DNA of 24,597 nucleotides from Thermodesulfobacteriota bacterium (GTDB lineage Bacteria > Desulfobacterota > Desulfobacteria > Desulfobacterales > SURF-7). The notes under the pieces are model-generated. The model saw only the letters and a list, made by a program, of their open reading frames with translations, did no database searches and was not told where the DNA came from. Position numbers and translations under genes: made by a program. The stretch spans positions 1 to 24,597 of the forward strand of contig JBMORA010000016.1 in assembly GCA_049320885.1 (NCBI GenBank), read 5' to 3'. Of this stretch, positions 4,518-24,122 are shown in pieces (positions within the stretch are counted from its first letter, which is position 1; every line of letters begins with the position of its first letter).

Positions 4518-5378
4518 CTACTGTAACATTTCCACCACAAATGTATGCTTCCATCCACATGACGGCAAATTCCGGGATGCCTGTTCAGCCTCACGGGTAT
4601 TGCTGAAGAGCCCGAATACAGTAGGCCCGCTCCCGGACATCAGCGCTCCCCTCGCTCCAAGATCCAGGAGCGATCTCTTGATGCCGTCGATTTCAGGAAA
4701 CATGGATGCAGTAACGGTTTCCAGATCGTTGCACAAGTACTCCCGCACATCCAGGAAATCTTCCTTAAAAGGTAGGTTACTAATTTTTTTTTTGCATTTT
4801 GTCAATCTTAAATTCAGATTTTTAAAAACCAGGGCCGTGGATACGGGGAATCCTGGATTCACCAGCAGCATCGTATACGGTACCAATTTACCACAGGGTG
4901 ACAGTCGCTCACCGATGCCGGTTGCAAGGGCGGGCCGCGCCAAAATGAAAAACGGCACATCCGCCCCGATACGCGCGCCCATCGATATTAATTTGTCATT
5001 TGATAATAAATAGTTGTAATATTTATTGAGCCCCAGCAACACGGCTGCCGCATTGCTGCTGCCGCCGCCTAGTCCCGCCCCCACCGGTATCTTTTTTTCG
5101 ATGGTAATCACAACTGGCTGCTCTATACCGATTTCATGGAAAAACAGGACAGCGGCGCGATGGACCAAATTGCTGGAATCCGCGGGCACCTCTGGATGGT
5201 CGCAGATGACAAGAGTTCTGTCGGTTTCAAAATTCAGGCGGATGGTGTCGAATAGCCCGACTGGACACATCAATGTCCGCAGGTTGTGATATCCGTCCGC
5301 CCGTTTTCCGGTAACCTCCAGGAAAAAATTGACCTTGGCGGGCGACAACAGCTCAATCGTATTGATTTTATTCGGCAT
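4518..5378 (-). CDS. ispE: 4-diphosphocytidyl-2-C-methyl-D-erythritol kinase
   Basis: PAKVNFFLEV, DGYH, KKIPVGAGLGGGSSNAA, GADVPFF, NDLE, MSGSGPTVFG. First ATG at 5378, no clear RBS. Confidence 0.95.
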   Translation of the reverse strand: MPNKINTIELLSPAKVNFFLEVTGKRADGYHNLRTLMCPVGLFDTIRLNFETDRTLVICDHPEVPADSSNLVHRAAVLFFHEIGIEQPVVITIEKKIPVGAGLGGGSSNAAAVLLGLNKYYNYLLSNDKLISMGARIGADVPFFILARPALATGIGERLSPCGKLVPYTMLLVNPGFPVSTALVFKNLNLRLTKCKKKISNLPFKEDFLDVREYLCNDLETVTASMFPEIDGIKRSLLDLGARGALMSGSGPTVFGLFSNTREAEQASRNLPSCGWKHTFVVEMLQ

Positions 5379-11712: not shown

Positions 11713-12099
11713 TCATTCCAAAAGTCTTTTAACACTCTGCAATATCTCGTCCGCCGAAGCGGGTTTTGGCAGATAGTCGTCGGCTTCCATGCTCATCCCA
11801 TGATGATGGGAATATTTTGTCGAACCCACATGATCCGCCACCGCTGTTAGCATGACGATGGGGATATCCCGATATTTTTCACTTTTCTTCAGCTCGGCAC
11901 AGACCTCATAGCCGTCTTTTTCCGGCATCATGACATCCAGGACGATCGCATCCGGCGGATTGGCCTTTACTTTTTCGAGCGCTTCCACTCCGTCATAGGC
12001 GACTTCCACGGCAAAACCACTTTTTTTCAGGTTGTTTTGAACAATCGCGGCAAAATCCGGTTCATCATCCACCACAAGAATTCTCTTTTTTTCGCTCAT
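11713..12099 (-). CDS. Single-domain response regulator (REC)
   Basis: ILVVDDE, VLDVMMPEKDG, MLTA, YLPKP; RBS AAGGAG. Confidence 0.93.
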   Translation of the reverse strand: MSEKKRILVVDDEPDFAAIVQNNLKKSGFAVEVAYDGVEALEKVKANPPDAIVLDVMMPEKDGYEVCAELKKSEKYRDIPIVMLTAVADHVGSTKYSHHHGMSMEADDYLPKPASADEILQSVKRLLE

Positions 12100-12184: not shown

Positions 12185-13117
12185 TCAAGCCAGCGAGGGC
12201 CTGGGAAAAAGACCGGCCTGTTCCACAATTTCCGGCACCTTCTCCTCCCATTCGATGGCCATGATATGAAATCCTTTGATTCCTTTGAGTTCCTTCAGGC
12301 GCTGAATGGATTCGATGCAAATCTTGACCCCTTCTTCCGCCTGTTTCTCCTTGGGGGTTCCGGACATGCGCTTGACGACTTCATCCGGCACATCCATCCC
12401 GGGAACACGATTTTTCATGTACTTCGCCATACCGGCTGATTTAAGCGGCGTCACCCCGGCTAAAATGGAGACTTTTTCCAGGAGGCCGCGATCACCCGCC
12501 TGTTTCATCCAGGTATCAAATTTATCGAGATTATAAATACACTGGGTTTGAATAAACTCAGCCCCGGCCGCGATTTTCTTGGCCAGACGGGGGACCCTGA
12601 TTTCAAAAGGATCCGCAAAGGGATTGGCGGCAGCACCTACAAACATCTGCGGCGGACGCTTGATCTCGTCCCCGCCCAAAAACTTGCCTTCGTCACGCAT
12701 CAGCCGGACCGTTTGAATCAATTGCATGGAATCCAGATCATGCACATTCTGCCCCTTGGCGCAATCCCCGAAACTCTGATGGTCACCGGACAGACATAAA
12801 ATATTATGGATGTCGAAAGATGCGGCGCCAAGGATATCGCTCTGAATCGCAATGCGATTGCGGTCGCGGGTCACCATTTGGAGAACCGGCTCCAATCCCA
12901 GCAGTTTCAGCCGGATACAAGCTGCCAGACTGCACATTCTGGTGACGGAAGTCTGGTTGTCGGTAATGTTGATGGCGTCCACATGATTCTTGATCAGATT
13001 CGCCTTTTCAATAATCACTTCCGGATCACTGCCCCGCGGCGGTCCGCACTCGGATGTCACGGCCAAATGACCGGCGGCAAGGATTTTCTCCAATTTACTG
13101 GGTGTTTTCACGTTCAT
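12185..13117 (-). CDS. metF: Methylenetetrahydrofolate reductase catalytic subunit (MetV-associated type)
   Basis: TSECGPPRG, DAINITDNQ, RDRNRIAIQSD, LCLSGDH, GAAANP, KKIAAGAEFIQTQ, GFHIM; ATGA overlap with metV. Confidence 0.93.
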   Translation of the reverse strand: MNVKTPSKLEKILAAGHLAVTSECGPPRGSDPEVIIEKANLIKNHVDAINITDNQTSVTRMCSLAACIRLKLLGLEPVLQMVTRDRNRIAIQSDILGAASFDIHNILCLSGDHQSFGDCAKGQNVHDLDSMQLIQTVRLMRDEGKFLGGDEIKRPPQMFVGAAANPFADPFEIRVPRLAKKIAAGAEFIQTQCIYNLDKFDTWMKQAGDRGLLEKVSILAGVTPLKSAGMAKYMKNRVPGMDVPDEVVKRMSGTPKEKQAEEGVKICIESIQRLKELKGIKGFHIMAIEWEEKVPEIVEQAGLFPRPSLA

Positions 13118-13782
13118 TCCTGCACATCCTCCCTTACCACTTTTCGCGGACCACCCGCCCTGTCGGTGGACCAGTCTTTGATCGTAAATAATTTCTCATA
13201 ATCCTCGATCCGGCCTAATGCTTTCAGGCGATCGACGATCAGCTGCCAGGCGCAGTCGATATCCTTGCTGATTTCACATTTGCCTTTGGTCGAACCGCCG
13301 CATGGACCGTTCATGATCCGTTTGGCACATCTGGATATGGGACAAATCCCGCCGGTAAACGCCAATATGCATTGACCGCAGGCCTGGCAGCGTTCGGTCC
13401 ATAGTCCGCGCTTTTCCGTAGCCCCCAAAAAGCAGGTATTCACACCCGGGAAAACCGGAGTGTTTTGATATTTCTCCGCCATGAACTGAACGCCGACGCC
13501 GCAGGCAAGGGAAACCACCGCTTCGTACAGGTCGATCCGGTCACGGATTTCCTCCAGGTATTCATGATCGCATTGCCTTTCCAGGGTGATTTCGTCAATG
13601 GTGACGGATTTTCCCTGGTTCATGAAATACATTCGTAAGGCCGAAGCCAGAACCCCGACTTCTTTTTTCCCGCCTGCCTCACACACGGTCACGCATTCGT
13701 TGCAACCCAGAATGAGAATTTTCGTATAGTCTTTAACTTCGCTGATGATTTCCTCGATCGGTTTCTTATCGGCAACAATCAT
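13114..13782 (-). CDS. metV: Methylenetetrahydrofolate reductase Cys-rich subunit MetV
   Basis: GCNECVTVC, RQCD, ACGVGVQ, ERCQACGQC..GGICP..RCAK..NGPCGG...CE....CAW; ATG 13782 after AAGGAAAGG. Confidence 0.9.
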   Translation of the reverse strand: MIVADKKPIEEIISEVKDYTKILILGCNECVTVCEAGGKKEVGVLASALRMYFMNQGKSVTIDEITLERQCDHEYLEEIRDRIDLYEAVVSLACGVGVQFMAEKYQNTPVFPGVNTCFLGATEKRGLWTERCQACGQCILAFTGGICPISRCAKRIMNGPCGGSTKGKCEISKDIDCAWQLIVDRLKALGRIEDYEKLFTIKDWSTDRAGGPRKVVREDVQE

Positions 13783-13840
13783 AGATACCAACCTTTCCTT
13801 TCACGAATTGAAATTTCAAATTTGACATTTGAAATTATTT

Positions 13841-14275
13841 CTACGCCGCCCTGGTTGACTTGGCCAGCTTGATCGGGTTGGGGCCCAATTCTCGAATCCG
13901 CTGATCCATTTCCTTGGCATATTCCACAAAACGGGGGGCCTCGCTGGAGGAGAGATTGTACATCGCCACCCTCCCGCCGCCGATGCCGATGGCATCGAGT
14001 ATCCCTTTGGCCTGCTCAACCCGTTTGCGTGCCCGGAAATTTCCTTTGTTGAAATGGCAATCACCCTCCATGCAGCCGACCACGTAAACACCATCCGCGC
14101 CTTTTTCAAACGCACGCAGGATATGCAATACATCGACTTTCCCAGTGCAGGGCACGCGCACGATCTTGATATCGGTCGTATATTGGATTCGCATCGAACC
14201 TGCCAGGTCCGCGGCCGTGTACCCTCAATAATTACAGCAGAAGGAAATAATGATGGGCTTGAAATCCTGCGTCAT
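13841..14275 (-). CDS. mvhD: MvhD/FlpD [2Fe-2S] subunit, selenoprotein (U17)
   Basis: ATG 14275 (ATGA overlap with the hdrA-like stop) gives [19 protein letters not shown](14227-14225)-GYTAADLAGSMRIQY, continuing in frame to VPCTGKVD, GADGV..GCMEGDCHF; 144 aa. Confidence 0.93.
14195..14211 (-). promoter_or_regulatory. Bacterial SECIS-like hairpin of mvhD
   Basis: CGGACCT-GGC-AGGTTCG; G-containing apical loop 20 nt downstream of the UGA. Confidence 0.7.
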
Positions 14276-17200
14276 AGAACCCCTTCCAGCAAGGCGTCAA
14301 TCTTGCTTATAATTTGATTATCTTCATACCAGCTGAGTTCAATCGCCTTGGCCGGACACTCGGCCGCGCAAACGCCGCAGCCCTGGCATAAGGCCTCATC
14401 GATCATGCTGACACCCTCTTCATTGATTCTGGGAACGCCGTACGGGCAGGAACGAACACAGACAAGACAGGAGGCGCACAGTTCCTGCTTCACCTTGGCC
14501 GTCACGGCTGACAGGGTCAGGTATTCCTGGGAGAGATAGGTGATCGCACGGGATGCCGCTGCGTATGCCTGGGAAATGGATTCTCCGATCAGTTTGGGAC
14601 TGTGGGCCGTTCCGCAGACGAAAATACCTTCCGTGGCCATATCCACCGGCCGCAACTTGACATGCGCCTCCATGAAAAAGCCCTCGGCATTTCTGGCGAG
14701 CTTCATGATGGACGACAATTCTTCCGTGTCTTCAGCGCGCATGCCGGCACTCAACGCCAAAAGATCGGCGCTAACAATCACACTCCTGCCCAGCACATGA
14801 TCCCGGAAGCGCACCTGAATTCCATCCGGACCGGCCTCCGCCGTGGGCGGATTGTCCTTGTCGAAACGGCTGAATATCACTCCCTGCTTGCGGGCCTCGG
14901 TGTAGTATTCCTCCAAAAATCCGTAAGTCCTCATATCCCGGTAGAGAATGAACACATTGGCGTCCGGATTCAGTTTTTTAATGTGCAGCGCGTTTTTCAC
15001 CGCTGCCTGGCAGCAGATCCGGGAACAATTCGGATTGTCATCGTTGCGGGAACCGACACACTGAATCATCACCACTTGGTTCAGGTCCTCGGCGCCGGCT
15101 TCCTCCAAGCGCTGGGACAGTTCCACCTGGGTCAGGACCCGGGCATCTTTTCCATAGTGATATTCCGTCGGCTGATATTCACTCGCTCCGGTTGCCAGGA
15201 TGGCGACACCATGGCTGATTTTCCTTTCATACATGCCGGGACCCACCAGGACTTCCGTAACGAAATTCCCCTTGAACCCCTCGAAACCGACGATCAGCGA
15301 CTGGGTCAGAACCTGGATTTTGCCATGCGACCGGACCCGGGCGCTGAGCTCTCGGATGTAATCCTTGACGGATGAGCCGTCAATGGTTTCCGTAAGCCGG
15401 TTGGCCATGCCGCCCAGTTCGGTTTCCTTTTCAACGAGAACCGTCTCAAACCCCTGGTCCGCCATGGTCAGGGCGGCATTCATTCCGGCCACGCCACCGC
15501 CTACCACCAGGGCGCGTTGTTTGACCGGTATCTTTTTCTCGTGCAGCGGGTTGAGCGTCACGGCCCGGGCAACCGCCATGCGCACCAAGTCCCTGGCCTT
15601 CTCCGTGGCGGCTTCCGGATCGTTCGAATGGGACCAGGAATTCTGATTGCGGATGTTGGCCATCTCGAACAGATATTTGTTCAGTCCGCAGGCGGCAAGC
15701 GTGTCCATGAAAATGCCTTCATGGGTCTTGGGCGTGCAGGCCGCCACCACTATCCGGTTCAGATTGTTTTCCCGGATGATCGCCTTCATATGGTCCTGGG
15801 CGTCCTGGGAACAAGTAAACAGATTCTGGGTGCTGAAAACCACTCCCGGCAGGGTTTTGGCGTATTCTTCCACCTGGGCGACGTTGACCACGCTGGATAT
15901 ATTGATCCCGCAGTTGCAGACAAAAACGCCCACCCGCGGTTCCTGGCCCTCCACATTGATTTCCGCGGGGACCTCGACTGTCTTCGTGTTGGTCCAGCGG
16001 GCAGCGCTCAGGAAAGCCCCGGCCGCTCCCGCCGCGGCACTCGCTTCAGTGACCGAACTTGGAATATCCTTCGGCTCCTGAAAAACGCCGCAGGCATAGA
16101 CACCGGGACGGGAAGTTTCAATGGGTGTAAACGGTCTGGTTTGGGCAAAACGGTATTTGTCGGTCTTGACTCCAAGCCGCTCTGCCAGGTCCCTGGTGGC
16201 TTCGGGTATTTGCAGGCCCACGGAAAGAACGACCATGTCAAAAATCTCTTCCCGAATTTCGCCGGAATCATTGGCGTATCGAATCCGCAAATCACCTTCA
16301 GCCTTCATTTCGTCGATGGTATGCACCCGCGCCTTGATGAACCTGACGCCCGCGCCCTCCCTGGCGCGCAGATAATATTTTTCATAATCCTTGCCGTAGG
16401 TCCGGATGTCCATGTTGAAGATGGCACAATCCAGTTCGCCGTGGGCGTGCTCCTTGGCGATCATGGCATCTTTTATGGCGTACATGCAACAAACCGAGGA
16501 ACAGTATCCATTACCGCAGTTATTGGTATCCCGGGAACCGACGCACTGAAGCCAGGCGATCTTTTTCGGTTCTTTCCCGTCGGAAGGTCTCGTCAGATGC
16601 CCCATGGTGGGGCCCGAGGCGCTTAAAATCCTTTCGAATTCCAGACTGGTCAATACGTTCGGGTTGGTCTTGTAATGGAAAAATTGATCGAGTTTGCTGG
16701 GATTATAGGGTTCGCTGCCCAGGCACAACAATACCGCGCCGACATCGACTTCCCGGATCAGGGCCTGCTGCTCGTGATCGATGGCCTTGGCCAGACAAGC
16801 ATCCACGCACTGATAGCATTCCGAGCAATACCCGCAGTTTAGGCAACGAGACGCTTCCTGCCGGCCGGTCTCCTCGGGAAAACCAAGTTCTACTTCCAGG
16901 AAATTGCCCTTCCGGGATTCCGGCGGCAGCTCCGGCATTCTCGCCCGCGCCCGTTTGGGCTCGCCTTCGGGTATGGGACGGTAAATCGGATTTTCAACTG
17001 CCGGTTTTTCGCGGCCGGCCGCCATGTCGCGATGATCCAGATACCTTTCAATGGACTCGGCCGCTTCGCGACCGGCCGCAATGGCGCCGATGGCGATCCA
17101 CGGACCGGTTTGCAGATCGCCGCCGGCAAAAACGCCCTCGCGTTCCGTGGCATAGGTAACAGCATTGACTTCGGTTGTTCCCCAGCGGGTGAAGGTCAGA

Positions 17201-18705
17201 CCGGCGATATCCTCCAATGCCGACAAATCCGGGCGCTGTCCGATGGCGGGTATCACCTGATCAACTTCAACGTCATATTCACTTCCCGGCACGGGGATGG
17301 GGCGTTTTCTGCCCGATGAATCCGGCTCGCTCAACTCCATGCGGATGCAGCGGAGGCTTCTAACTTTTCCGTCCTGAAGCAGCACCTCCTGGGGTGCCGC
17401 CAGATAAACGATCTTGACCCCCTCCGCTTCCGCCGCCTTGATCTCCTCCTCCCAAGCCGGCATCTCCTTCCGGGTGCGCCGATAAATGATGGTGACCTCC
17501 TCGGCGCCCAGACGAACTGCCGAGCGGGACACGTCAATGGCGACATTGCCGCCGCCGATAATGGCCACGCGCCTGCCGACCGTCGCCTTGCCGGTAAGAT
17601 TCGATTCGCGAAGGAAGTCAACCCCCTGGCGAACGCCCTCGGCCTTTTCGCCCGGAATCCCCATTTCAATCCCCTTATGGGCGCCGAGGGCAAGGTAAAC
17701 AGCCTGATAGCCATCGTTCATCAGGCTATCGACGGTCATGTTCGGTCCAAGGGGTGAATTGGTTTTGATTTCCACACCCAGATTGGTGATCACCTCGATT
17801 TCCTGATCCAGAACTTCCCGCGGCAATCGGTGGGCAGGGATACCGACCCGCAGCATTCCACCCGGTTTGGGCAATGCTTCGAAAATCGTGGAACCGATGC
17901 CTTTCCGCGCCAAATGATAGGCGGCGGACAGACCGGCCGGACCGGAACCGATAATCGCCACCCTCTCCGGCCGCCGGGGCTTGCATCCGATCTTGATCTC
18001 ACGCGGATCGAATTTATCGGCCGCCAGCCTTTTCAAGTCCCGTATGGCGACGGGCTGCTCGACTTCGCAACGCCGACAGGCTTCCTCGCAACCATGCGGG
18101 CAAATCCGCCCCAAGACGCCCGGCAAGGGCAGCTCTTCCATGATGATTTTCAGTGCTTCGGCATATTTCCCCTGTTTCACCATCTGAACATATCCCTGGA
18201 CATTCAAACCCGCCGGGCAGGCCAGACGGCAGGGAGCCTTGTCAGTCTTTTGAATGGCGAAAGCGCCGGGAATTGCCTGGGCATATTTCTTGTAGGTGGC
18301 CCGTTTTCTGGAAAGCCCCTCATCATATTCGTTGGGAAGTTCTACCGGGCATACCTTGGCGCACTCCCCACAGCTGGTGCATTTGGAGGGATCGATATAT
18401 CTAGCTTCCTGCCTGATCAACGCCTTGAATCTACCCGGCTCTCCGGTAAGATTCGACAATTCGGCGTTCGTCAACAATTCGATATTCAGATGCCGGCCGA
18501 CCTCGACCAGTTTTGGAGAAATAATTCACATGGCGCAGTCGTTTGTGGGGAACGTCTTGTCCAGCTGACTCATCAGGCCGCCGATGGCCGATGATTTTTC
18601 CAGGAGATAGACATAATAACCGGAGTTAGCGAGATCCAGGGCGGACTGCATTCCTGCGATGCCGCCTCCTACCACCATCACGGAACCGACTGCTTTTGTG
18701 GTCAT
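14272..18705 (-). CDS. hdrA: Large HdrA-like (HdrL-type) Fe-S flavoprotein, selenoprotein (U60): HdrA module with GltD/NfnB-like insert plus second HdrA module
   Basis: ORFs 18526..18732 and 14272..18477 share a frame and join through TGA 18528-18526: [38 protein letters not shown] motifs GGGIAG, GSGPAG and GGGVAG; two QCVGSR...CS..CC motifs; several ferredoxin motifs; 1477 aa. Confidence 0.93.
18493..18510 (-). promoter_or_regulatory. Bacterial SECIS-like hairpin of the hdrA-like gene
   Basis: CTGGTCG-AGGT-CGGCCGG; loop 22 nt downstream of the UGA with G at loop position 2. Confidence 0.72.
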
Positions 18706-19024: not shown

Positions 19025-20599
19025 ATGACGAAAAAAACACTCCGGATCATCAATATTGCCCTTGTCGGAGGTGGCTCCTTCTGCGGGGAGTTCCTGAAAA
19101 AGTCCACCCTTGATTATCGCCGGGAAATCTCCGCCCGCATCGTCGCCGTCTCCGATCCGGACGAAAACGCACCCGGAATTTTACTGGCCGGGGAACTGGG
19201 CATCAAAACCGAAACGGACTATACTACCTTCTACGATCCGGCTTACCGTATCGACCTCATTATTCTCATGACCCCGGATCCGGAAATTCTCGAAGATATC
19301 CTGGCCAACAAACCCGGCAATATCCGGTTGCTGTCCTTTCAGACCTTCGAGATATTATGGACGGCCATCGGTCTAGAGGAAAAAAAGCTGAGAGAGCGGA
19401 CCAAGGAAATTGAAACCATCATAGACGGGATTCAAGACTTCATTATGGTGATGAAACCGACCATGGAAGTAATCGAAGTGAATCAGTCGTTTCTCTCCAA
19501 AATGGGCTACAGTCGTGAAGAAGTCATTGGTTGCAAATGCTACGAAATCTATCATAAGATAGATAAGCCCTGCGAATCCAGCCAGATGGATTGCCCCCTG
19601 CAGGACGTCATCCGCAATAAAAGACAGTGCCGCCAAGTTCAAACCCGTCTCATGCCCAACGGCGAAACCCGGTATTATGAAGTCAACATCTACCCCATCT
19701 GGGAAAAAGACGGCAAAATTTCAAAATTCATTCATATCAGCCGCGATATCACTCAGCACAAGCAAGAAGAAGCGGAGATCACCCGAAGGCTTGAAGAAAT
19801 GGTGGAAGAGCGAACCAGCCAGTTGCGTGAAACCCATGCGAAACTCCTTCACCAGGACAAAATGGCTTCACTGGGGAAACTTTCCGCTTCGGTCGTGCAC
19901 GAAATCAATAACCCCATTGCCGGGATCCTGAATCTCATCGTTTTGATGAAACGGATGATCACGGAAGGAGCCTTGGAGAAAGCCGATATCGACCGTTTCA
20001 ATCAATACCTCATTCTTATGGAAACGGAAACCCGCCGCACCAGCCGGATCGTTTCCAACCTGCTGGCCTTTTCCCGTCAATCCAAGATGGAAAGGAAACA
20101 GGTCGATATCAATCAACTGATTGAAAAAACCCTGTTCCTGAACTCAAACCTGCTGAAAATCGACGGCGCGAAAATCGTCACCTCCCTCGACCCGGGCCTG
20201 CCGGAAGTCCTGGGTTCGGAGGATCAACTCCTGCAGGTGTTCATGAATGTAATCTCCAACGCCGCCGAGGCCATCGAAACGGCGGGTGGGGGCGTTCTGA
20301 CAATTTCAACAACAACCGATCGCAGGGAAGGCGCGGTCATTGCCGAGTTCACGGATACCGGTATTGGCATTCCCCGGGAGAATCTGCCGAATATTTTCGA
20401 ACCGTTTTTCACCACCAAAAAAAAAGGCAAGGGGGTGGGACTGGGCTTATCCGTGGCCTATGGAATCATTGAAGAACATGATGGGACGATTTCCGTTGAT
20501 TCAGAAGCCGGCAGAGGGACCACCTTTCTGATTCAGTTACCCCTCAAGCCCTCGGAAAAGAGAAGCAGCGGTTATAGAGGTATCTATGAGCAACACTAA
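19025..20599 (+). CDS. Sensor histidine kinase: Rossmann-like N-domain, PAS, HisKA, HATPase
   Basis: [15 protein letters not shown] (Rossmann-like), PAS with [19 protein letters not shown]...VHEINNP, NAAEA, DTGIGI, FFTTK, GVGLGL. Confidence 0.92.
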
Positions 20600-21926
20600 A
20601 ATCCTGATAGTGGATGACGAACTGATCATGCGGGAATCGCTGGCCGGCTGGCTGGAACGTGACGGCCACGACATCGACAAGGCCAGCAGCGGAGAAGAAG
20701 CGTTGGCGAAAACCCGGACCACCCGCTATGATATCCTGCTCGTGGACATCAAAATGGAAGGCATCAGCGGCCTGGACGTCCTCAAACAGGTCAAGGAAAA
20801 CGATTCGGATATAGCCGTCGTCATGATCACCGCCTATGGCTCCATCCAGACGGCGATCGAGGCGATTAAAAACGGCGCCTATGATTATCTGCTGAAGCCC
20901 TTCGATCCGAATGAACTGGGGATGCTGATCCATAGAATTATACGGGATCAGGCCCAGGCCAGGGAAAACCTGTTTTTACGCGAGGAGTACAAGGAACGCA
21001 CGCGCTTCGAAAGCATGATCGGCCAGTCTCCAGCCATGCAAAAGATTTTCGACCTTATCAAGGATGTCGCGCCGGTCGACTCGACGGTGCTGATTACCGG
21101 CGAAACGGGAACCGGCAAGGGACTTGCGGCCAAAGCCATTCATACCAACAGCCCCCATTGTGAAGGACCGTTCGTTGTCGTCAATTGCGGTGCCATTCCC
21201 GAGCACCTGATGGAGAGCGAACTCTTCGGTCATCAAAAAGGCGCCTTCACGGACGCTCATGAAACCAAAAAGGGGCGACTGGAACTGGCCCACGGCGGGA
21301 CTATTTTCCTGGACGAAATTGGTGAAATCAGCATGCGCATGCAAATAGACTTGCTGAGGGTTCTGGAAGACCATGTGTTTTATCGGGTCGGCGGCACCCA
21401 GCCCATGACAGTCGATTTCCGCATCATCGCCGCCACCAACCGGAATCTGGAGGAAGCCATCCGCAAGGGTATTTTCAGGGAAGATCTGTACTACCGTCTC
21501 AACGTGGTTTCCTTTGAAATGCCTCCGCTGAGAAAAAGAAAAGAGGACATACCGCTGCTGGCGGAACATTTTCTCCACCGCTTCGCCCAGGAAACCAAAA
21601 AAACCATCGACAAAATCAGCCGGCCGGCCATGGATGAAATCATGCTGTACGAATGGCCGGGGAATGTCCGTGAGCTTGAAAACGCCATCGAACGAGCCGT
21701 CGTCGTCGCCAAGGGGCGCAACCTTCAACCGGAGGATCTGCCGCTTTTCCGCTCGGAAATCTGTGTGCCGGCGACCGCATCCCTGAAGGATGTGGAAAGG
21801 GCCCATATCGCCAAGGTTCTGGAAGACAACGGTTGGAATGTATCCAAAAGCGCAAAAATACTCGATATCGACAGAACCACCCTGTATAATAAGATCCGAC
21901 TATACGACATCAAGAAACCCCATTGA
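20586..21926 (+). CDS. Sigma54-dependent response regulator (NtrC/AtoC family: REC-AAA+-HTH)
   Basis: REC; Walker A GETGTGKG; ESELFGH; GAFTDA; Walker B FLDEI; FREDLYYRL; WPGNVRELEN; Fis-type HTH. Confidence 0.95.
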   Translation: MSNTKILIVDDELIMRESLAGWLERDGHDIDKASSGEEALAKTRTTRYDILLVDIKMEGISGLDVLKQVKENDSDIAVVMITAYGSIQTAIEAIKNGAYDYLLKPFDPNELGMLIHRIIRDQAQARENLFLREEYKERTRFESMIGQSPAMQKIFDLIKDVAPVDSTVLITGETGTGKGLAAKAIHTNSPHCEGPFVVVNCGAIPEHLMESELFGHQKGAFTDAHETKKGRLELAHGGTIFLDEIGEISMRMQIDLLRVLEDHVFYRVGGTQPMTVDFRIIAATNRNLEEAIRKGIFREDLYYRLNVVSFEMPPLRKRKEDIPLLAEHFLHRFAQETKKTIDKISRPAMDEIMLYEWPGNVRELENAIERAVVVAKGRNLQPEDLPLFRSEICVPATASLKDVERAHIAKVLEDNGWNVSKSAKILDIDRTTLYNKIRLYDIKKPH

Positions 21927-22489
21927 TCTCCGCTCCCGGCCATATCGTAGTCATCACGCCCATCGGAAATTTCAGCTCCGCGATGCTGTCTGCCGTTTCG
22001 CTGGAGATCCAGCGTATTTTCGGTTTTTCCGTCCGGATTCAATCATTGCTTCCGAATGTGTCTTTCGCCTATGATCTGGATCGCGATCAATACAATTCCA
22101 CCATGATTCTGCAAAAACTGGACGCGGCTGCCCCGCCCGAAGCCGCCAAAGTTCTGGGTATCACGGAAGTGGATTTGTTCATCCCAATCCTCACTTATGT
22201 CTACGGGGAAGCGCAGCTTGGTGGGAAGGCCTGTATCGTTTCCATCCACCGCCTCAGCGAGGGGATTTCACCCGTCAACACCGAGGCGAAATTCGTGGAA
22301 CGGATCACCAAGGAGGCGATCCATGAGCTTGGGCATACGTTCAATCTGCGGCATTGCCCGGATCACGCCTGCAGCATGCATTATTGCCGCTGCATTGCCG
22401 ACGTGGACAACAAATCGGACCAGCTCTGCCGGTACTGCAAAATCCTGCTGGAAGACGCCATCAAAAAAATTCATCCGCCGAATCCGTAA
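21923..22489 (+). CDS. Archaemetzincin-family (M54) Zn-dependent metalloprotease
   Basis: RDQYNS, DLFIPILTYVYGEAQLGG, KEAIHELGHTFNLRHC....CSM...VD.K...LC..C; TTGA overlap with the regulator stop. Confidence 0.88.
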   Translation: MISAPGHIVVITPIGNFSSAMLSAVSLEIQRIFGFSVRIQSLLPNVSFAYDLDRDQYNSTMILQKLDAAAPPEAAKVLGITEVDLFIPILTYVYGEAQLGGKACIVSIHRLSEGISPVNTEAKFVERITKEAIHELGHTFNLRHCPDHACSMHYCRCIADVDNKSDQLCRYCKILLEDAIKKIHPPNP

Positions 22490-22608: not shown

Positions 22609-22914
22609 TCACGCTACGAGTCTTACGGGAACCTCGCGCTGAATTTTAGAGCCTATTTCCCGCTCAGCGACCTTCAGGTCGTAACTTGTCTGCAGGTTCA
22701 GCCAGAACTGGGGCGTTGTGCCGAAATACCGGGCAAGCCGAAGGGCTGTATCGGGAGTGATCGAACGGCGCTCACGCACGATCTCATTGATGCGCGGAGC
22801 CGGAACTTTGAGTTCCATCGCCAATGCATGGGCGCTGAGTCCAAATGGGACAAGAAACTCTTCCCGTAACACTTCACCGGGATGAACCGGCCGCATTTGG
22901 TTTGTCGGATTCAT
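22609..22914 (-). CDS. higA: HigA-family antitoxin (HTH XRE)
   Basis: RPVHPGEVLREEFL, RINEIVRERRSITPDTALRLARYFGTTPQFWLNLQ..YDL; ATG 22914 after GAGGAG. Confidence 0.93.
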   Translation of the reverse strand: MNPTNQMRPVHPGEVLREEFLVPFGLSAHALAMELKVPAPRINEIVRERRSITPDTALRLARYFGTTPQFWLNLQTSYDLKVAEREIGSKIQREVPVRLVA

Positions 22915-22927
22915 AATCGGTATCTCC

Positions 22928-23206
22928 TCAATGGTAATCGATGATCTCGACATCGAAGGCATTGCCTTCCTCGAAGCGAAAACAGATCCGCCAACGTTCA
23001 TTGATGCGAATACTCCACTGACCTTTGCGGTCACCGCGCAAAGCCTCCAGCCTGTTACCCGGCGGGACACGAAGGTCCTCAATTGCATACGCATCGTCCA
23101 GCATTTGCAGTTTACGCTCAGCAACAGTTGCAAATGCCTTGAACTTGCGTGGACATCTGCCTTCGAACAATGCCTGAGCGTGCTTGCATCGGAATGTCTT
23201 GATCAT
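22928..23206 (-). CDS. higB: HigB-family toxin (RelE/ParE superfamily)
   Basis: MIKTF, DLRVPPGNRLEALRGDRKGQWSIRINERWRICF, VEIIDYH; toxin-before-antitoxin order. Confidence 0.93.
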   Translation of the reverse strand: MIKTFRCKHAQALFEGRCPRKFKAFATVAERKLQMLDDAYAIEDLRVPPGNRLEALRGDRKGQWSIRINERWRICFRFEEGNAFDVEIIDYH

Positions 23207-23214
23207 GAACAACT

Positions 23215-23241
23215 ATTATATCGTTGCACGTTTAACGTCAA
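23215..23241 (-). promoter_or_regulatory. higBA promoter with candidate operator in the spacer
   Basis: TTGACG-15 nt-TATAAT, then 8 nt to ATG; imperfect palindrome CGTTgcACGTttAACG at 23222-23237. Confidence 0.6.
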
Positions 23242-23394
23242 GCGCTAAATTGACGGAAATCGACCTGTTTGGAAGCTTTCCTTTTGGAATTGTTCCGGAA
23301 AAATTTGGATGGTCCGCTCTTGACGAAAACCGAGAAGGAATATTATTCACGAACCGTCAAAAAAAAGGTCGCGGCCGCCCCCAGATATCTTCTG

Positions 23395-23440
23395 ACATCA
23401 TGATGTATCTTCTTGACATTTTGATGCATCATTATATATA
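23395..23440 (+). promoter_or_regulatory. vapBC promoter/operator
   Basis: TTGACA (23413-23418)-16 nt-TATATA; palindromes ACATCATGATGT (23395-23406) and TGATGCATCA (23422-23431). Confidence 0.65.
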
Positions 23441-23448
23441 CGTTGATT

Positions 23449-23688
23449 ATGAGAACAACGATTCGAATAGATGACCATTTATTGCATGAAGCCAAAAAAA
23501 TGGCGATGGCGACCAATACTACCCTGTCCGCCCTTGTTGAAACGGCCGTCAAGGAAATGTTGTCAAAGCGCCAAAAAAAAACTCACCGAAAGCCTTTCGC
23601 ATTGCTGACTTATAAAGGTCACGGTCTCAAATATGGCGTTGATCTTGATGACTCCGCCGCACTGCTCGATTTGATGGAAAAAAAATAA
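23449..23688 (+). CDS. vapB: VapB-family (ribbon-helix-helix) antitoxin
   Basis: MRTTIRIDDHLL.EAK..A.....TLSALVE.A...GVDLDDSAALLDLME; TAATG overlap with the PIN toxin. Confidence 0.85.
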   Translation: MRTTIRIDDHLLHEAKKMAMATNTTLSALVETAVKEMLSKRQKKTHRKPFALLTYKGHGLKYGVDLDDSAALLDLMEKK

Positions 23689-24122
23689 TGCTTCTGCCGG
23701 ATGTGAACATTTGGGTTTACGCGCATCGGGAAGACAGCCCGAATCATAAAAAGATCAAGGCGTTTGTTACTAATATGATCGGAAATGACAGCGCTTTCGG
23801 CGTGTCCTCCTTGGTTATGAGCGGATTCCTACGGGTAGTCACGCATCCGAAGATTTTCGACCCGCCGACACCACTTGAGCTTGCAGTACAATTTGCAGAA
23901 GAAATTACCGGTCATCCCGAGGCGGTTCTCGTTTCACCGGGAAATCGCCACTGGGAAATTTTTACTACCCTCTGCAAGCGCACCGAAGCCAGAGGGAATC
24001 TCATTCCAGATGCATATTTTGCCGCTTTGGCAATTGAGTCCGGCAATACCTGGGTCACTACGGACAGAGACTTCAGTCGGTTCCCGGGCCTTGATTGGAA
24101 ACACCCCTTATCTGATTTTTAA
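23688..24122 (+). CDS. vapC: VapC-family PIN-domain ribonuclease toxin
   Basis: LPDVNIWVYA, FLRVVTHP, GNLIPDAYFAALAIE, TTDRDFSRFPGL. Confidence 0.92.
   Translation: MLLPDVNIWVYAHREDSPNHKKIKAFVTNMIGNDSAFGVSSLVMSGFLRVVTHPKIFDPPTPLELAVQFAEEITGHPEAVLVSPGNRHWEIFTTLCKRTEARGNLIPDAYFAALAIESGNTWVTTDRDFSRFPGLDWKHPLSDF

Follow-up and report, generated by a model that had tools for sequence, protein, structure and literature searches.

A selenocysteine-containing hdrA-mvhD-metV-metF operon of Desulfobacterales as a candidate variant of the Hdr-type methylene-tetrahydrofolate reductase

Results

The operon and its assignment to the type IV reductases

We analysed a stretch of 24,597 nucleotides (nt), called the window in the following, from a Thermodesulfobacteriota bacterium of the Desulfobacterales lineage SURF-7 (GenBank assembly GCA_049320885.1, contig JBMORA010000016.1, positions 1 to 24,597), which carries the operon hdrA-mvhD-metV-metF on its minus strand. 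With a probability of roughly 0.55, this operon encodes a methylene-tetrahydrofolate (methylene-THF) reductase of the Hdr type (type IV) in a Desulfobacterales variant, in which electrons would be bifurcated at the first module of the large HdrA protein, NADP(H) would be served at the low-potential exit and a partner of the HdrD or HdrBC type would be the third participant. Judged by its genes, the operon would work like a type IV enzyme and its overall design is not new. Of interest are the conservation of the family, its apparently single site of bifurcation, a pyridine-nucleotide cassette that can be exchanged, and a candidate for the third partner.

The first gene, hdrA or hdrL (14272..18705, minus strand like the other three), encodes 1477 amino acids (aa) when TGA at 18528-18526 is read as selenocysteine (Sec60), and matches the HdrA and GltD families of Pfam. 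It is followed by mvhD (13841..14275), a [2Fe-2S] adaptor of 144 aa with Sec17 (TGA 14227-14225; Pfam FlpD, E 7.7e-49), by metV (13114..13782), an iron-sulfur subunit of 222 aa (DUF5981/MTHFR_C, E 1.1e-36), and by metF (12185..13117), the methylene-THF reductase flavoprotein of 310 aa (MTHFR, E 3.7e-37). ATGA overlaps join hdrA to mvhD (14275-14272) and metV to metF (13117-13114), and a gap of 58 nt lies between mvhD and metV. Family scans of the 21 open reading frames (ORFs) of the window found no HdrB, HdrC or hydrogenase, and the hydrogenase genes of the genome are located on other contigs only. An earlier note on this DNA had described four co-oriented genes with two ATGA overlaps, the absence of hdrB, hdrC and hydrogenase genes from the window, selenocysteine in HdrL and MvhD, and a MetVF reductase cluster that is linked to Hdr and has a pyridine-nucleotide module built in; all of this holds, by the coordinates, the ORF scans, the selenocysteine evidence presented below, and the gene families together with a GltD-like insert in HdrA.

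Related loci were compared in a set comprising the best 80 of at least 510 confirmed loci, picked by MetV similarity. From these, 59 intact HdrA sequences were taken out of 61 full-length ones (L134 and L153 were dropped because of frameshifts), the 19 further loci being truncated. The features of type IV that the operon shares are adjacent MetF and MetV genes, MvhD and a doubled HdrA directly upstream, and at least one flavin adenine dinucleotide (FAD) site with the Glu356/Lys409 signature. The hdrB and hdrC genes that complete the hexamer in the same cluster are found neither in the window nor in the 57 informative related loci, and therefore the operon is a variant of type IV and not a member of the hexameric type.

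Anatomy of the large HdrA protein

HdrA was compared with solved methanogen HdrA, with residue numbers hand-counted from the 5ODC alignment. It consists of two fused, complementary HdrA modules with a GltD-like insert, and is predicted to hold three FAD sites and about 8-9 [4Fe-4S] clusters. Module 1 (residues 1-153 and 620-905) comprises the FAD domain, Sec60, the inserted ferredoxin domain and the pair Glu691/Lys745 (16471..16635, minus strand), which corresponds to the Glu356/Lys409 bifurcation signature and is invariant in 59/59 orthologs. Module 2 (residues 921-1477; 14275..15945, minus strand) has an N-terminal cluster domain, an FAD domain and a C-terminal ferredoxin domain, and lacks the Cys197 motif and the inserted ferredoxin domain. 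Its Glu356 position is taken by Ser1197, with Glu present in only one of the 59 orthologs, and Lys1237 is invariant in all of them. HdrA thus appears to carry one FAD with an intact Glu/Lys pair, that is, one apparent bifurcation site. The 19 scored Cys/Sec columns common to insert-bearing and insert-less forms are invariant throughout the 59 sequences, and the same is true for both HA4-type clusters and the Sec ligand, 12 insert-less forms included. The canonical HdrABC-MvhAGD plan, with a single HdrA of 650 aa forming a symmetric dimer, differs from the fused and asymmetric protein found here.

The insert (residues 154-620; 16846..18246, minus strand) is a GltD/StnC-like domain with FAD and two [4Fe-4S] clusters and sits inside the inserted ferredoxin domain. 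It scores 384-432 bits against StnC/NfnA-type domains versus 284-307 bits against NfnB/NfnL, and its fingerprint, Tyr-Arg-Arg at residues 408-410, is of the NADP(H) type. The arrangement of an NfnAB pair is not present, as family scans found no NfnA-like partner among the 21 ORFs of the window. The inserted ferredoxin domain is where ferredoxin is normally reduced, so that an insert at this place would more likely stand in for ferredoxin than supply it with electrons. The StnC domain has been described as a non-bifurcating NADPH port (PMC10482914).

Both in-frame UGA codons encode selenocysteine

Judged by alignment, both in-frame UGA codons are selenocysteine codons and not stops. Sec60 of hdrA (18526..18528, minus strand) is the equivalent of Cys197 of methanogen HdrA, a ligand which one module contributes to the N-terminal cluster of the other. 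This position is UGA in 59/59 intact orthologous HdrA and Cys in paralogs; likewise the mvhD site is UGA in 79 of the 80 loci, the remaining one being cut by a contig end, and Cys in paralogs. SECIS-like (selenocysteine insertion sequence) hairpins follow on the minus strand, one at 18493..18510 for hdrA and one at about 14211-14195 downstream of the Sec17 codon of mvhD. Among the relatives, a G-loop hairpin stands after the UGA in 61/69 hdrA copies and in 77/79 mvhD copies, with third codon positions fixed. As a control, the hairpin was present in 6 of 11 Cys-type mvhD copies, and the set held no Cys-type hdrA control; the folding energies of the window's own hairpins were not unusual against shuffled sequences (z 0.32 to -0.71). 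The genome encodes selA and tRNA-Sec, and in the solved MvhD 9SFI_K the residue at the site of Sec17 is a non-standard one. A reading of the two genes as broken was rejected on the grounds of site conservation in orthologs and the downstream hairpins. As side observations, 9SFI_K carries non-standard residues at both its second and third cysteine sites, and a paralogous MvhD in locus L063 (about 4750-5170, minus strand) has its UGA at the third site, not the second.

Conservation of the gene order

The synteny survey suggested in the earlier note found the order hdrA-mvhD-metV-metF conserved in Desulfobacterales. The closest loci among the matches listed belong nearly all to Desulfobacterales, Desulfobacteraceae or Deltaproteobacteria. 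In all 80 loci mvhD precedes metV; metF follows metV in 79, the exception having just 111 nt downstream; and hdrA precedes mvhD in 75, the other five having under 1 kb upstream. Where hdrA has 2 kb or more of upstream sequence (57 loci), no separate hdrB or hdrC gene was found, and the lone match of hdrB/C type, in the truncated locus L087, falls at the usual start of hdrD in other loci. A fused hdrD follows metF and a receiver-domain gene in 20 of the 64 loci with at least 3 kb downstream, and all 20 copies contain an in-frame UGA. The result was alike in another set, of 24 loci; the two sets were not summed, because they may overlap and kin are not independent. An ortholog of the operon occurs in 24 of 40 relatives, with MetV identities of 77-93%. 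Eleven cysteines of MetV are invariant across 57 aligned sequences.

Reading gene by gene, we found MvhD-like genes adjoining metV-metF without hdrA in at least six loci (L052, L053, L057, L059, L061 and L062), with an altered N-terminal cysteine motif, and in four of these six glutamate-synthase-like genes follow that resemble those after metF on contig C48 of the host genome. Upstream of hdrA, 43 of 57 loci have a divergent MetF-like gene, about 30% identical to the MetF of the operon (for example L082, 4034-4957). Its closest match in the genome studied here (59%) lies on a separate contig (C25:751-1704).

Exchange of the insert among lineages

Four insert states are found among the 59 HdrA sequences: type I, that of the window, in 16, type II in 11, type III in 20 and no insert in 12. 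Types I and II have Tyr-Arg-Arg after the second Rossmann strand, and type III has Cys-Leu-Glu there. In Rossmann folds, Arg-Arg at this position marks the NADP type and an acidic residue the NAD type, a reading which fits the NADPH enzymes among the insert's solved relatives. By this rule, two of the insert types are NADPH-like and one is NADH-like.

Inserts are 60-99% identical within types and 40-53% between types; the HdrA sequence outside the insert is 63-91% identical between the three insert types. Each type forms a single branch in the insert tree, and on the backbone tree the four states need 6 changes, compared with a minimum of 3 and a shuffled mean of 32 (both trees by FastTree only). 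For instance, L099 and L104 are 90.9% identical outside the insert versus 45.7% inside. The distant Cys-type paralogs L065 and L066 have inserts 71-72% identical to the window's on a backbone of 53%, and in five loci (L078, L084, L090, L116 and L152) neither of two HdrA copies bears an insert. These patterns indicate that the GltD insert has been repeatedly exchanged between lineages of related species. No account of such an exchange was found in the literature searched, most subscription papers being beyond reach.

Partners and paralogous clusters in the host genome

The host is a sulfate reducer, and its genome (5.6 Mb, 98% complete) contains dsrA, acsB with an acs cluster, fhs, folD and rnfC. 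It has four metV-metF pairs, located in this operon and on contigs C48, C63 and C28. On C48, the order hdrC-hdrB-hdrA-mvhD-metV-mvhD'-metF forms a complete Moorella-like cluster whose HdrA bears the insert too; an MvhD-like gene (C48:68290-68690) stands between its metV and metF. C63:98843-106842 encodes a NuoG/Fdh-like protein, NuoE, a NuoF-GltD fusion, MetV and MetF, an arrangement known as the 'X type' reductase, described as uncharacterised (PMC8515935).

Candidates for the third partner are encoded away from the operon. CCG domains were matched 24 times in the genome, including Sec-HdrD on C14 and C18 and Cys-HdrD on C1, and HdrBC is present as well. The HdrD proteins encoded next to the operon in relatives have close homologs on C14 and C18 (67-80%). 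Among the 24 genomes bearing an ortholog of the operon, HdrB was found in 20, HdrD in 19 and neither in one, which is 66% complete. A dependence on the Moorella-like hdrBC of the C48 type was considered and appears unlikely, as that HdrB occurs in only 4 of the 24. Two further gene groups were seen near the hdrD genes of this genome: an Rnf-like cluster (C18:4721-12670) that ends with a 696-aa RnfB-like protein with a GltD-like domain and converges on the Sec-HdrD gene, and on C1 (305238-315124) Cys-HdrD followed by hdrA(1010 aa)-mvhD-hdrA(L)-mvhD, where the large HdrA is 60% identical to the window's. This tandem arrangement resembles the set preceding metVF in some relatives.

Structure models of MetV and MvhD

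For the contact between MetV and MvhD, a natural Cys-type pair of paralogs (L064) was modelled as a stand-in for the window's pair. The model scored 0.59, the best of three controls 0.01; the runs agreed in 100% of contacts with a partner pLDDT (predicted local distance difference test) of at least 81, and gave no interface. In the calibration, 116 of 157 solved complexes attained the mark, as did 2 of 215 mismatches, but with a score of no more than 0.60 this held for only 18 of the 157 and for both mismatches. This suggests, weakly, that MetV contacts MvhD. We found no solved relative of MetV; its fold model (pLDDT 80.5) gave only generic Rossmann-like matches, the best with Z 8.8 and a root-mean-square deviation of 3.3 over 113 residues, and no specific structural relative among the matches listed.

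Neighbouring genes

Directly after metF lies a stand-alone receiver-domain gene (11713..12099, minus strand), recognised by family scan and by its conserved neighbourhood: of 64 loci whose downstream DNA spans at least 3 kb, 56 have it behind metF, with 48-93% identity over 67 matches, and hdrD or aroE often comes next. The sequence TTGACA-17-TATAAA, seen by eye, precedes this gene, which is possibly under a separate promoter. Scans for promoters (4 sites versus 4.5 expected) and for sigma-54 motifs (2 matches versus 2.07 expected) gave none upstream of hdrA, where by eye only a TTGACA was noted at 18814-18809. Divergent from hdrA, a PAS histidine kinase with an N-terminal Rossmann-like motif, a sigma-54 activator and an archaemetzincin are encoded at 19025-22489 (plus strand), and genes for a HigA-like antitoxin and a VapC-like PIN toxin (22609-24122) are found close to the contig end.

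Discussion

A possible electron path

In methanogens, the MvhD port is used by hydrogenase or formate dehydrogenase. Electrons pass from MvhD to the FAD in the other protomer, which the arm of the first one serves; HA4 is the route to HdrBC, and low-potential electrons leave through the inserted ferredoxin domain (PMC12350162, PMC9012536). Applied to the operon, this wiring would make the large HdrA a single-chain pseudo-dimer. Module 2 would be a mobile arm that offers its N-terminal cluster domain, which Sec60 from module 1 completes, its C-terminal ferredoxin domain and the docking site of MvhD; module 1, holding the only FAD with the full bifurcation signature, would be served by this arm. 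MetF and MetV would dock on MvhD as the mid-potential port, so that electrons from methyl-THF would enter via MetV and MvhD at the FAD of module 1 and be split there between NADP+ and a high-potential acceptor. The MvhD-like genes that adjoin metV-metF in loci lacking hdrA speak for this docking. The GltD insert on the low-potential exit would act as a non-bifurcating NADP(H) port in place of ferredoxin. The high-potential exit would need a partner like HdrC/HdrB. The Sec-HdrD, which many relatives encode beside the operon and this genome at other sites, is the most likely one, with HdrBC as the other candidate; from the partner, electrons may lead on to DsrC or menaquinone. During acetyl-CoA oxidation, the reaction would be 2 methyl-THF + NADP+ + X(ox) -> 2 methylene-THF + NADPH + X(red), and it could run backwards during CO2 fixation.

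Direct transfer from methyl-THF (taken at -200 mV) to NAD(P)+ was calculated to cost +23.2 kJ per methyl-THF. The bifurcated split between NAD(P)+ and menaquinone comes to -1.2 kJ per two methyl-THF, which is near equilibrium, and to +11.6 kJ with an acceptor at -140 mV. Such a split of methyl-THF oxidation to NAD+ and menaquinone has been proposed for Moorella, and papers of 2026 still call the third carrier unknown (PMC13391211, PMC13040438). An oxidative role, raised as a possibility in the earlier note, is plausible because the genome has dsrA, acsB, fhs and folD.

Several observations weigh against the type IV reading or parts of it. With NADP at -370 mV, the oxidative reaction is uphill with all acceptors tried (+5.8 to +21.2 kJ). 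None of the four metV-metF pairs of the genome was found in the stretch of the acs cluster region examined, so this operon need not be the catabolic one. The third partner is not fixed: where both flanks are available, 31 of 49 loci have none of hdrB, hdrC and hdrD nearby, and the search of the 24 genomes bearing an ortholog left 5 without HdrD, of which three are at least 90% complete. The complex model of MetV and MvhD is weak, made with a stand-in paralog and without an interface. From the accessible text of the published studies, bifurcation by a type IV enzyme was not demonstrated (PMC9430772, PMC6895022, PMC13040438), MetVF of Sporomusa ovata did not co-purify with Hdr or MvhD, and Kremp et al. 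propose the opposite docking for this species, with MetVF on HdrCB (both PMC9430772).

Alternative explanations

HdrA-MvhD could join NADPH and MetVF as a plain wire, in the manner of RnfC2 in type III, with a low methylene-THF level pulling methyl-THF oxidation. Type III enzymes do operate in this way (PMC13391211), one fraction of Thermacetogenium phaeum showed NADH-dependent methylene-THF reduction without ferredoxin coupling (PMC6895022), and the operon itself fixes no third partner. Against it, Glu691/Lys745, both HA4-type clusters and the Sec ligand are invariant in 59/59 sequences, among them the 12 that have no NAD(P)H module, and no transfer to methylene-THF from NADH was seen in Moorella, as far as the source could be consulted (PMC13040438). 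We regard a plain wire as unlikely. Still less likely is a loose association, in which MetVF and HdrA-MvhD are merely co-regulated, MetVF hands its electrons to ferredoxin or the quinone pool of the membrane, and HdrA(L)-MvhD works with several partners. It would account for the S. ovata MetVF, which purifies alone and accepts reduced ferredoxin (PMC9430772), for the membrane-associated, quinone-analogue-linked activity of T. phaeum (PMC6895022) and for the many other neighbours of hdrA-mvhD pairs in this genome. It agrees poorly with the translational coupling and the strict gene order in 74/74 loci with enough upstream DNA, with pull-downs in S. ovata that link MvhD, HdrA and MetF (PMC9430772) and, as a weak indication, with the MetV-MvhD model (0.59 versus 0.01 for the control).

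The earlier note had favoured a minimal, self-contained enzyme of four subunits, in which NAD(P)H electrons are bifurcated to methylene-THF and ferredoxin and the pyridine-nucleotide module replaces a separate subunit. The reaction is thermodynamically feasible, especially with NADPH at -370 mV (-7.7 to -23.2 kJ), hdrBC is absent in 57/57 informative loci, the insert is homologous to NfnB, itself able to bifurcate, and papers on sulfate reducers assume a reaction of NAD(P)H and ferredoxin by analogy (PMC10553843). The scheme fits the anatomy poorly, however: the insert sits on the ferredoxin exit, the window has no NfnA-like gene, the insert's closest relatives of known structure belong to the non-bifurcating StnC type, and in five loci neither of two HdrA copies bears an insert. 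Ferredoxin was not used by the preparations from Moorella, S. ovata and T. phaeum, in what could be read of these reports (PMC9430772, PMC6895022, PMC13040438). Moreover, 23 of the 24 relatives with an ortholog have HdrBC or HdrD, the exception being a genome of 66% completeness, which speaks against four subunits being sufficient. The insert as a novelty that replaces HdrBC was likewise rejected, as both coexist in Moorella and in the C48 paralog of this genome and the insert is absent from 12 of 59 orthologs. We therefore consider this model improbable, about as much so as the loose association; from the NAD(P)H-linked bifurcating reductase of the earlier note the built-in pyridine-nucleotide module is retained, and ferredoxin as third partner is not.

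Relation to known systems

Among known systems, the type IV ('6S') cluster of Moorella is closest, with the same order hdrA-mvhD-metV-metF, a doubled HdrA of 1487 aa (1477 here), a GltD insert in the first module and a Glu/Lys spacing of 54 in module 1 (PMC9430772). The operon differs from the MetFV-HdrABC-MvhD clusters of Moorella and S. ovata in having no hdrB and hdrC and in carrying Sec in HdrA and MvhD, and its fingerprint is of the Arg-Arg NADP type, whereas the Moorella HdrA oxidises NADH. In the alignment with methanogen HdrA its second FAD site has no counterpart of Glu356; for Moorella, Kremp et al. regard the two sites as intact, the Moorella protein being known to us by description only. 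For S. ovata MetVF, no coupling to NAD(P) or ferredoxin was found, according to the text available (PMC9430772). Related clusters are contained in PMC5736913, PMC10553843, PMC7325909 and PMC5109826, one of them with a fused hdrC-hdrB.

The metFV cluster of T. phaeum has hdrA and an MvhD-like gene beside metVF, with hdrB and hdrC elsewhere and an oxidative pathway (PMC6895022), so that the composition has a precedent. This organism is a Firmicute, its HdrA is reported to be only 31% identical to that of Moorella, the enzyme was linked to menaquinone and a periplasmic formate dehydrogenase, and the study reports an absence of bifurcation with NADH and ferredoxin (PMC6895022). A biochemical study of the Desulfobacterales operon was not found in the literature searched, most subscription papers being beyond reach; to this extent the remark of the earlier note that the exact composition lacks biochemistry holds. 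HdrL was defined in Desulfobacterium autotrophicum HRM2 as a fusion of HdrA and the glutamate synthase small subunit, there followed by mvhD and in some copies with Sec, and the large HdrA described here conforms to this definition; the HdrL genes of D. autotrophicum lie beside dsr-like or fdh genes, not metVF, and no biochemistry is given in the parts consulted (PMC2702500). In HdrA of anaerobic methanotrophic archaea (ANME), Cys197 and the N-terminal domain likewise complement each other within one chain and the ferredoxin domain has an NfnB-like insertion of about 500 aa, and Ca. Syntrophoarchaeum has clusters with MetFV, HdrA and MvhD. Both differ in being archaeal, the module order is reversed in ANME HdrA3/4, and the accessible text describes no exchange of insert types (PMC9012536).

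Implications

This folate step of the Wood-Ljungdahl pathway is demanding in energy: oxidation of methyl-THF by NAD(P)+ costs about 23 kJ/mol, and how acetyl-CoA-oxidising sulfate reducers pay for it is unsettled in the literature read. As a tentative proposal, which we hold with clearly less confidence than the type IV assignment, the operon and Sec-HdrD could form a soluble bifurcating enzyme in complete-oxidising Desulfobacterales that couples methyl-THF oxidation directly to the reduction of DsrC (sulfite) and of NAD(P)+, while different lineages would turn the low-potential arm to NADPH, to NADH or to ferredoxin as the GltD cassette is exchanged or dropped. If true, the coupling to DsrC would identify the third carrier that is still missing for Hdr-type methylene-THF reductases, and the switching would be a case in nature of an output module that can be swapped on a bifurcating flavoprotein. 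The natural variants, with inserts of the NADPH or NADH type or none and with or without an adjacent HdrD, are ready-made comparisons for the functions of the arms. The operon is a widespread and highly conserved candidate in Desulfobacterales.

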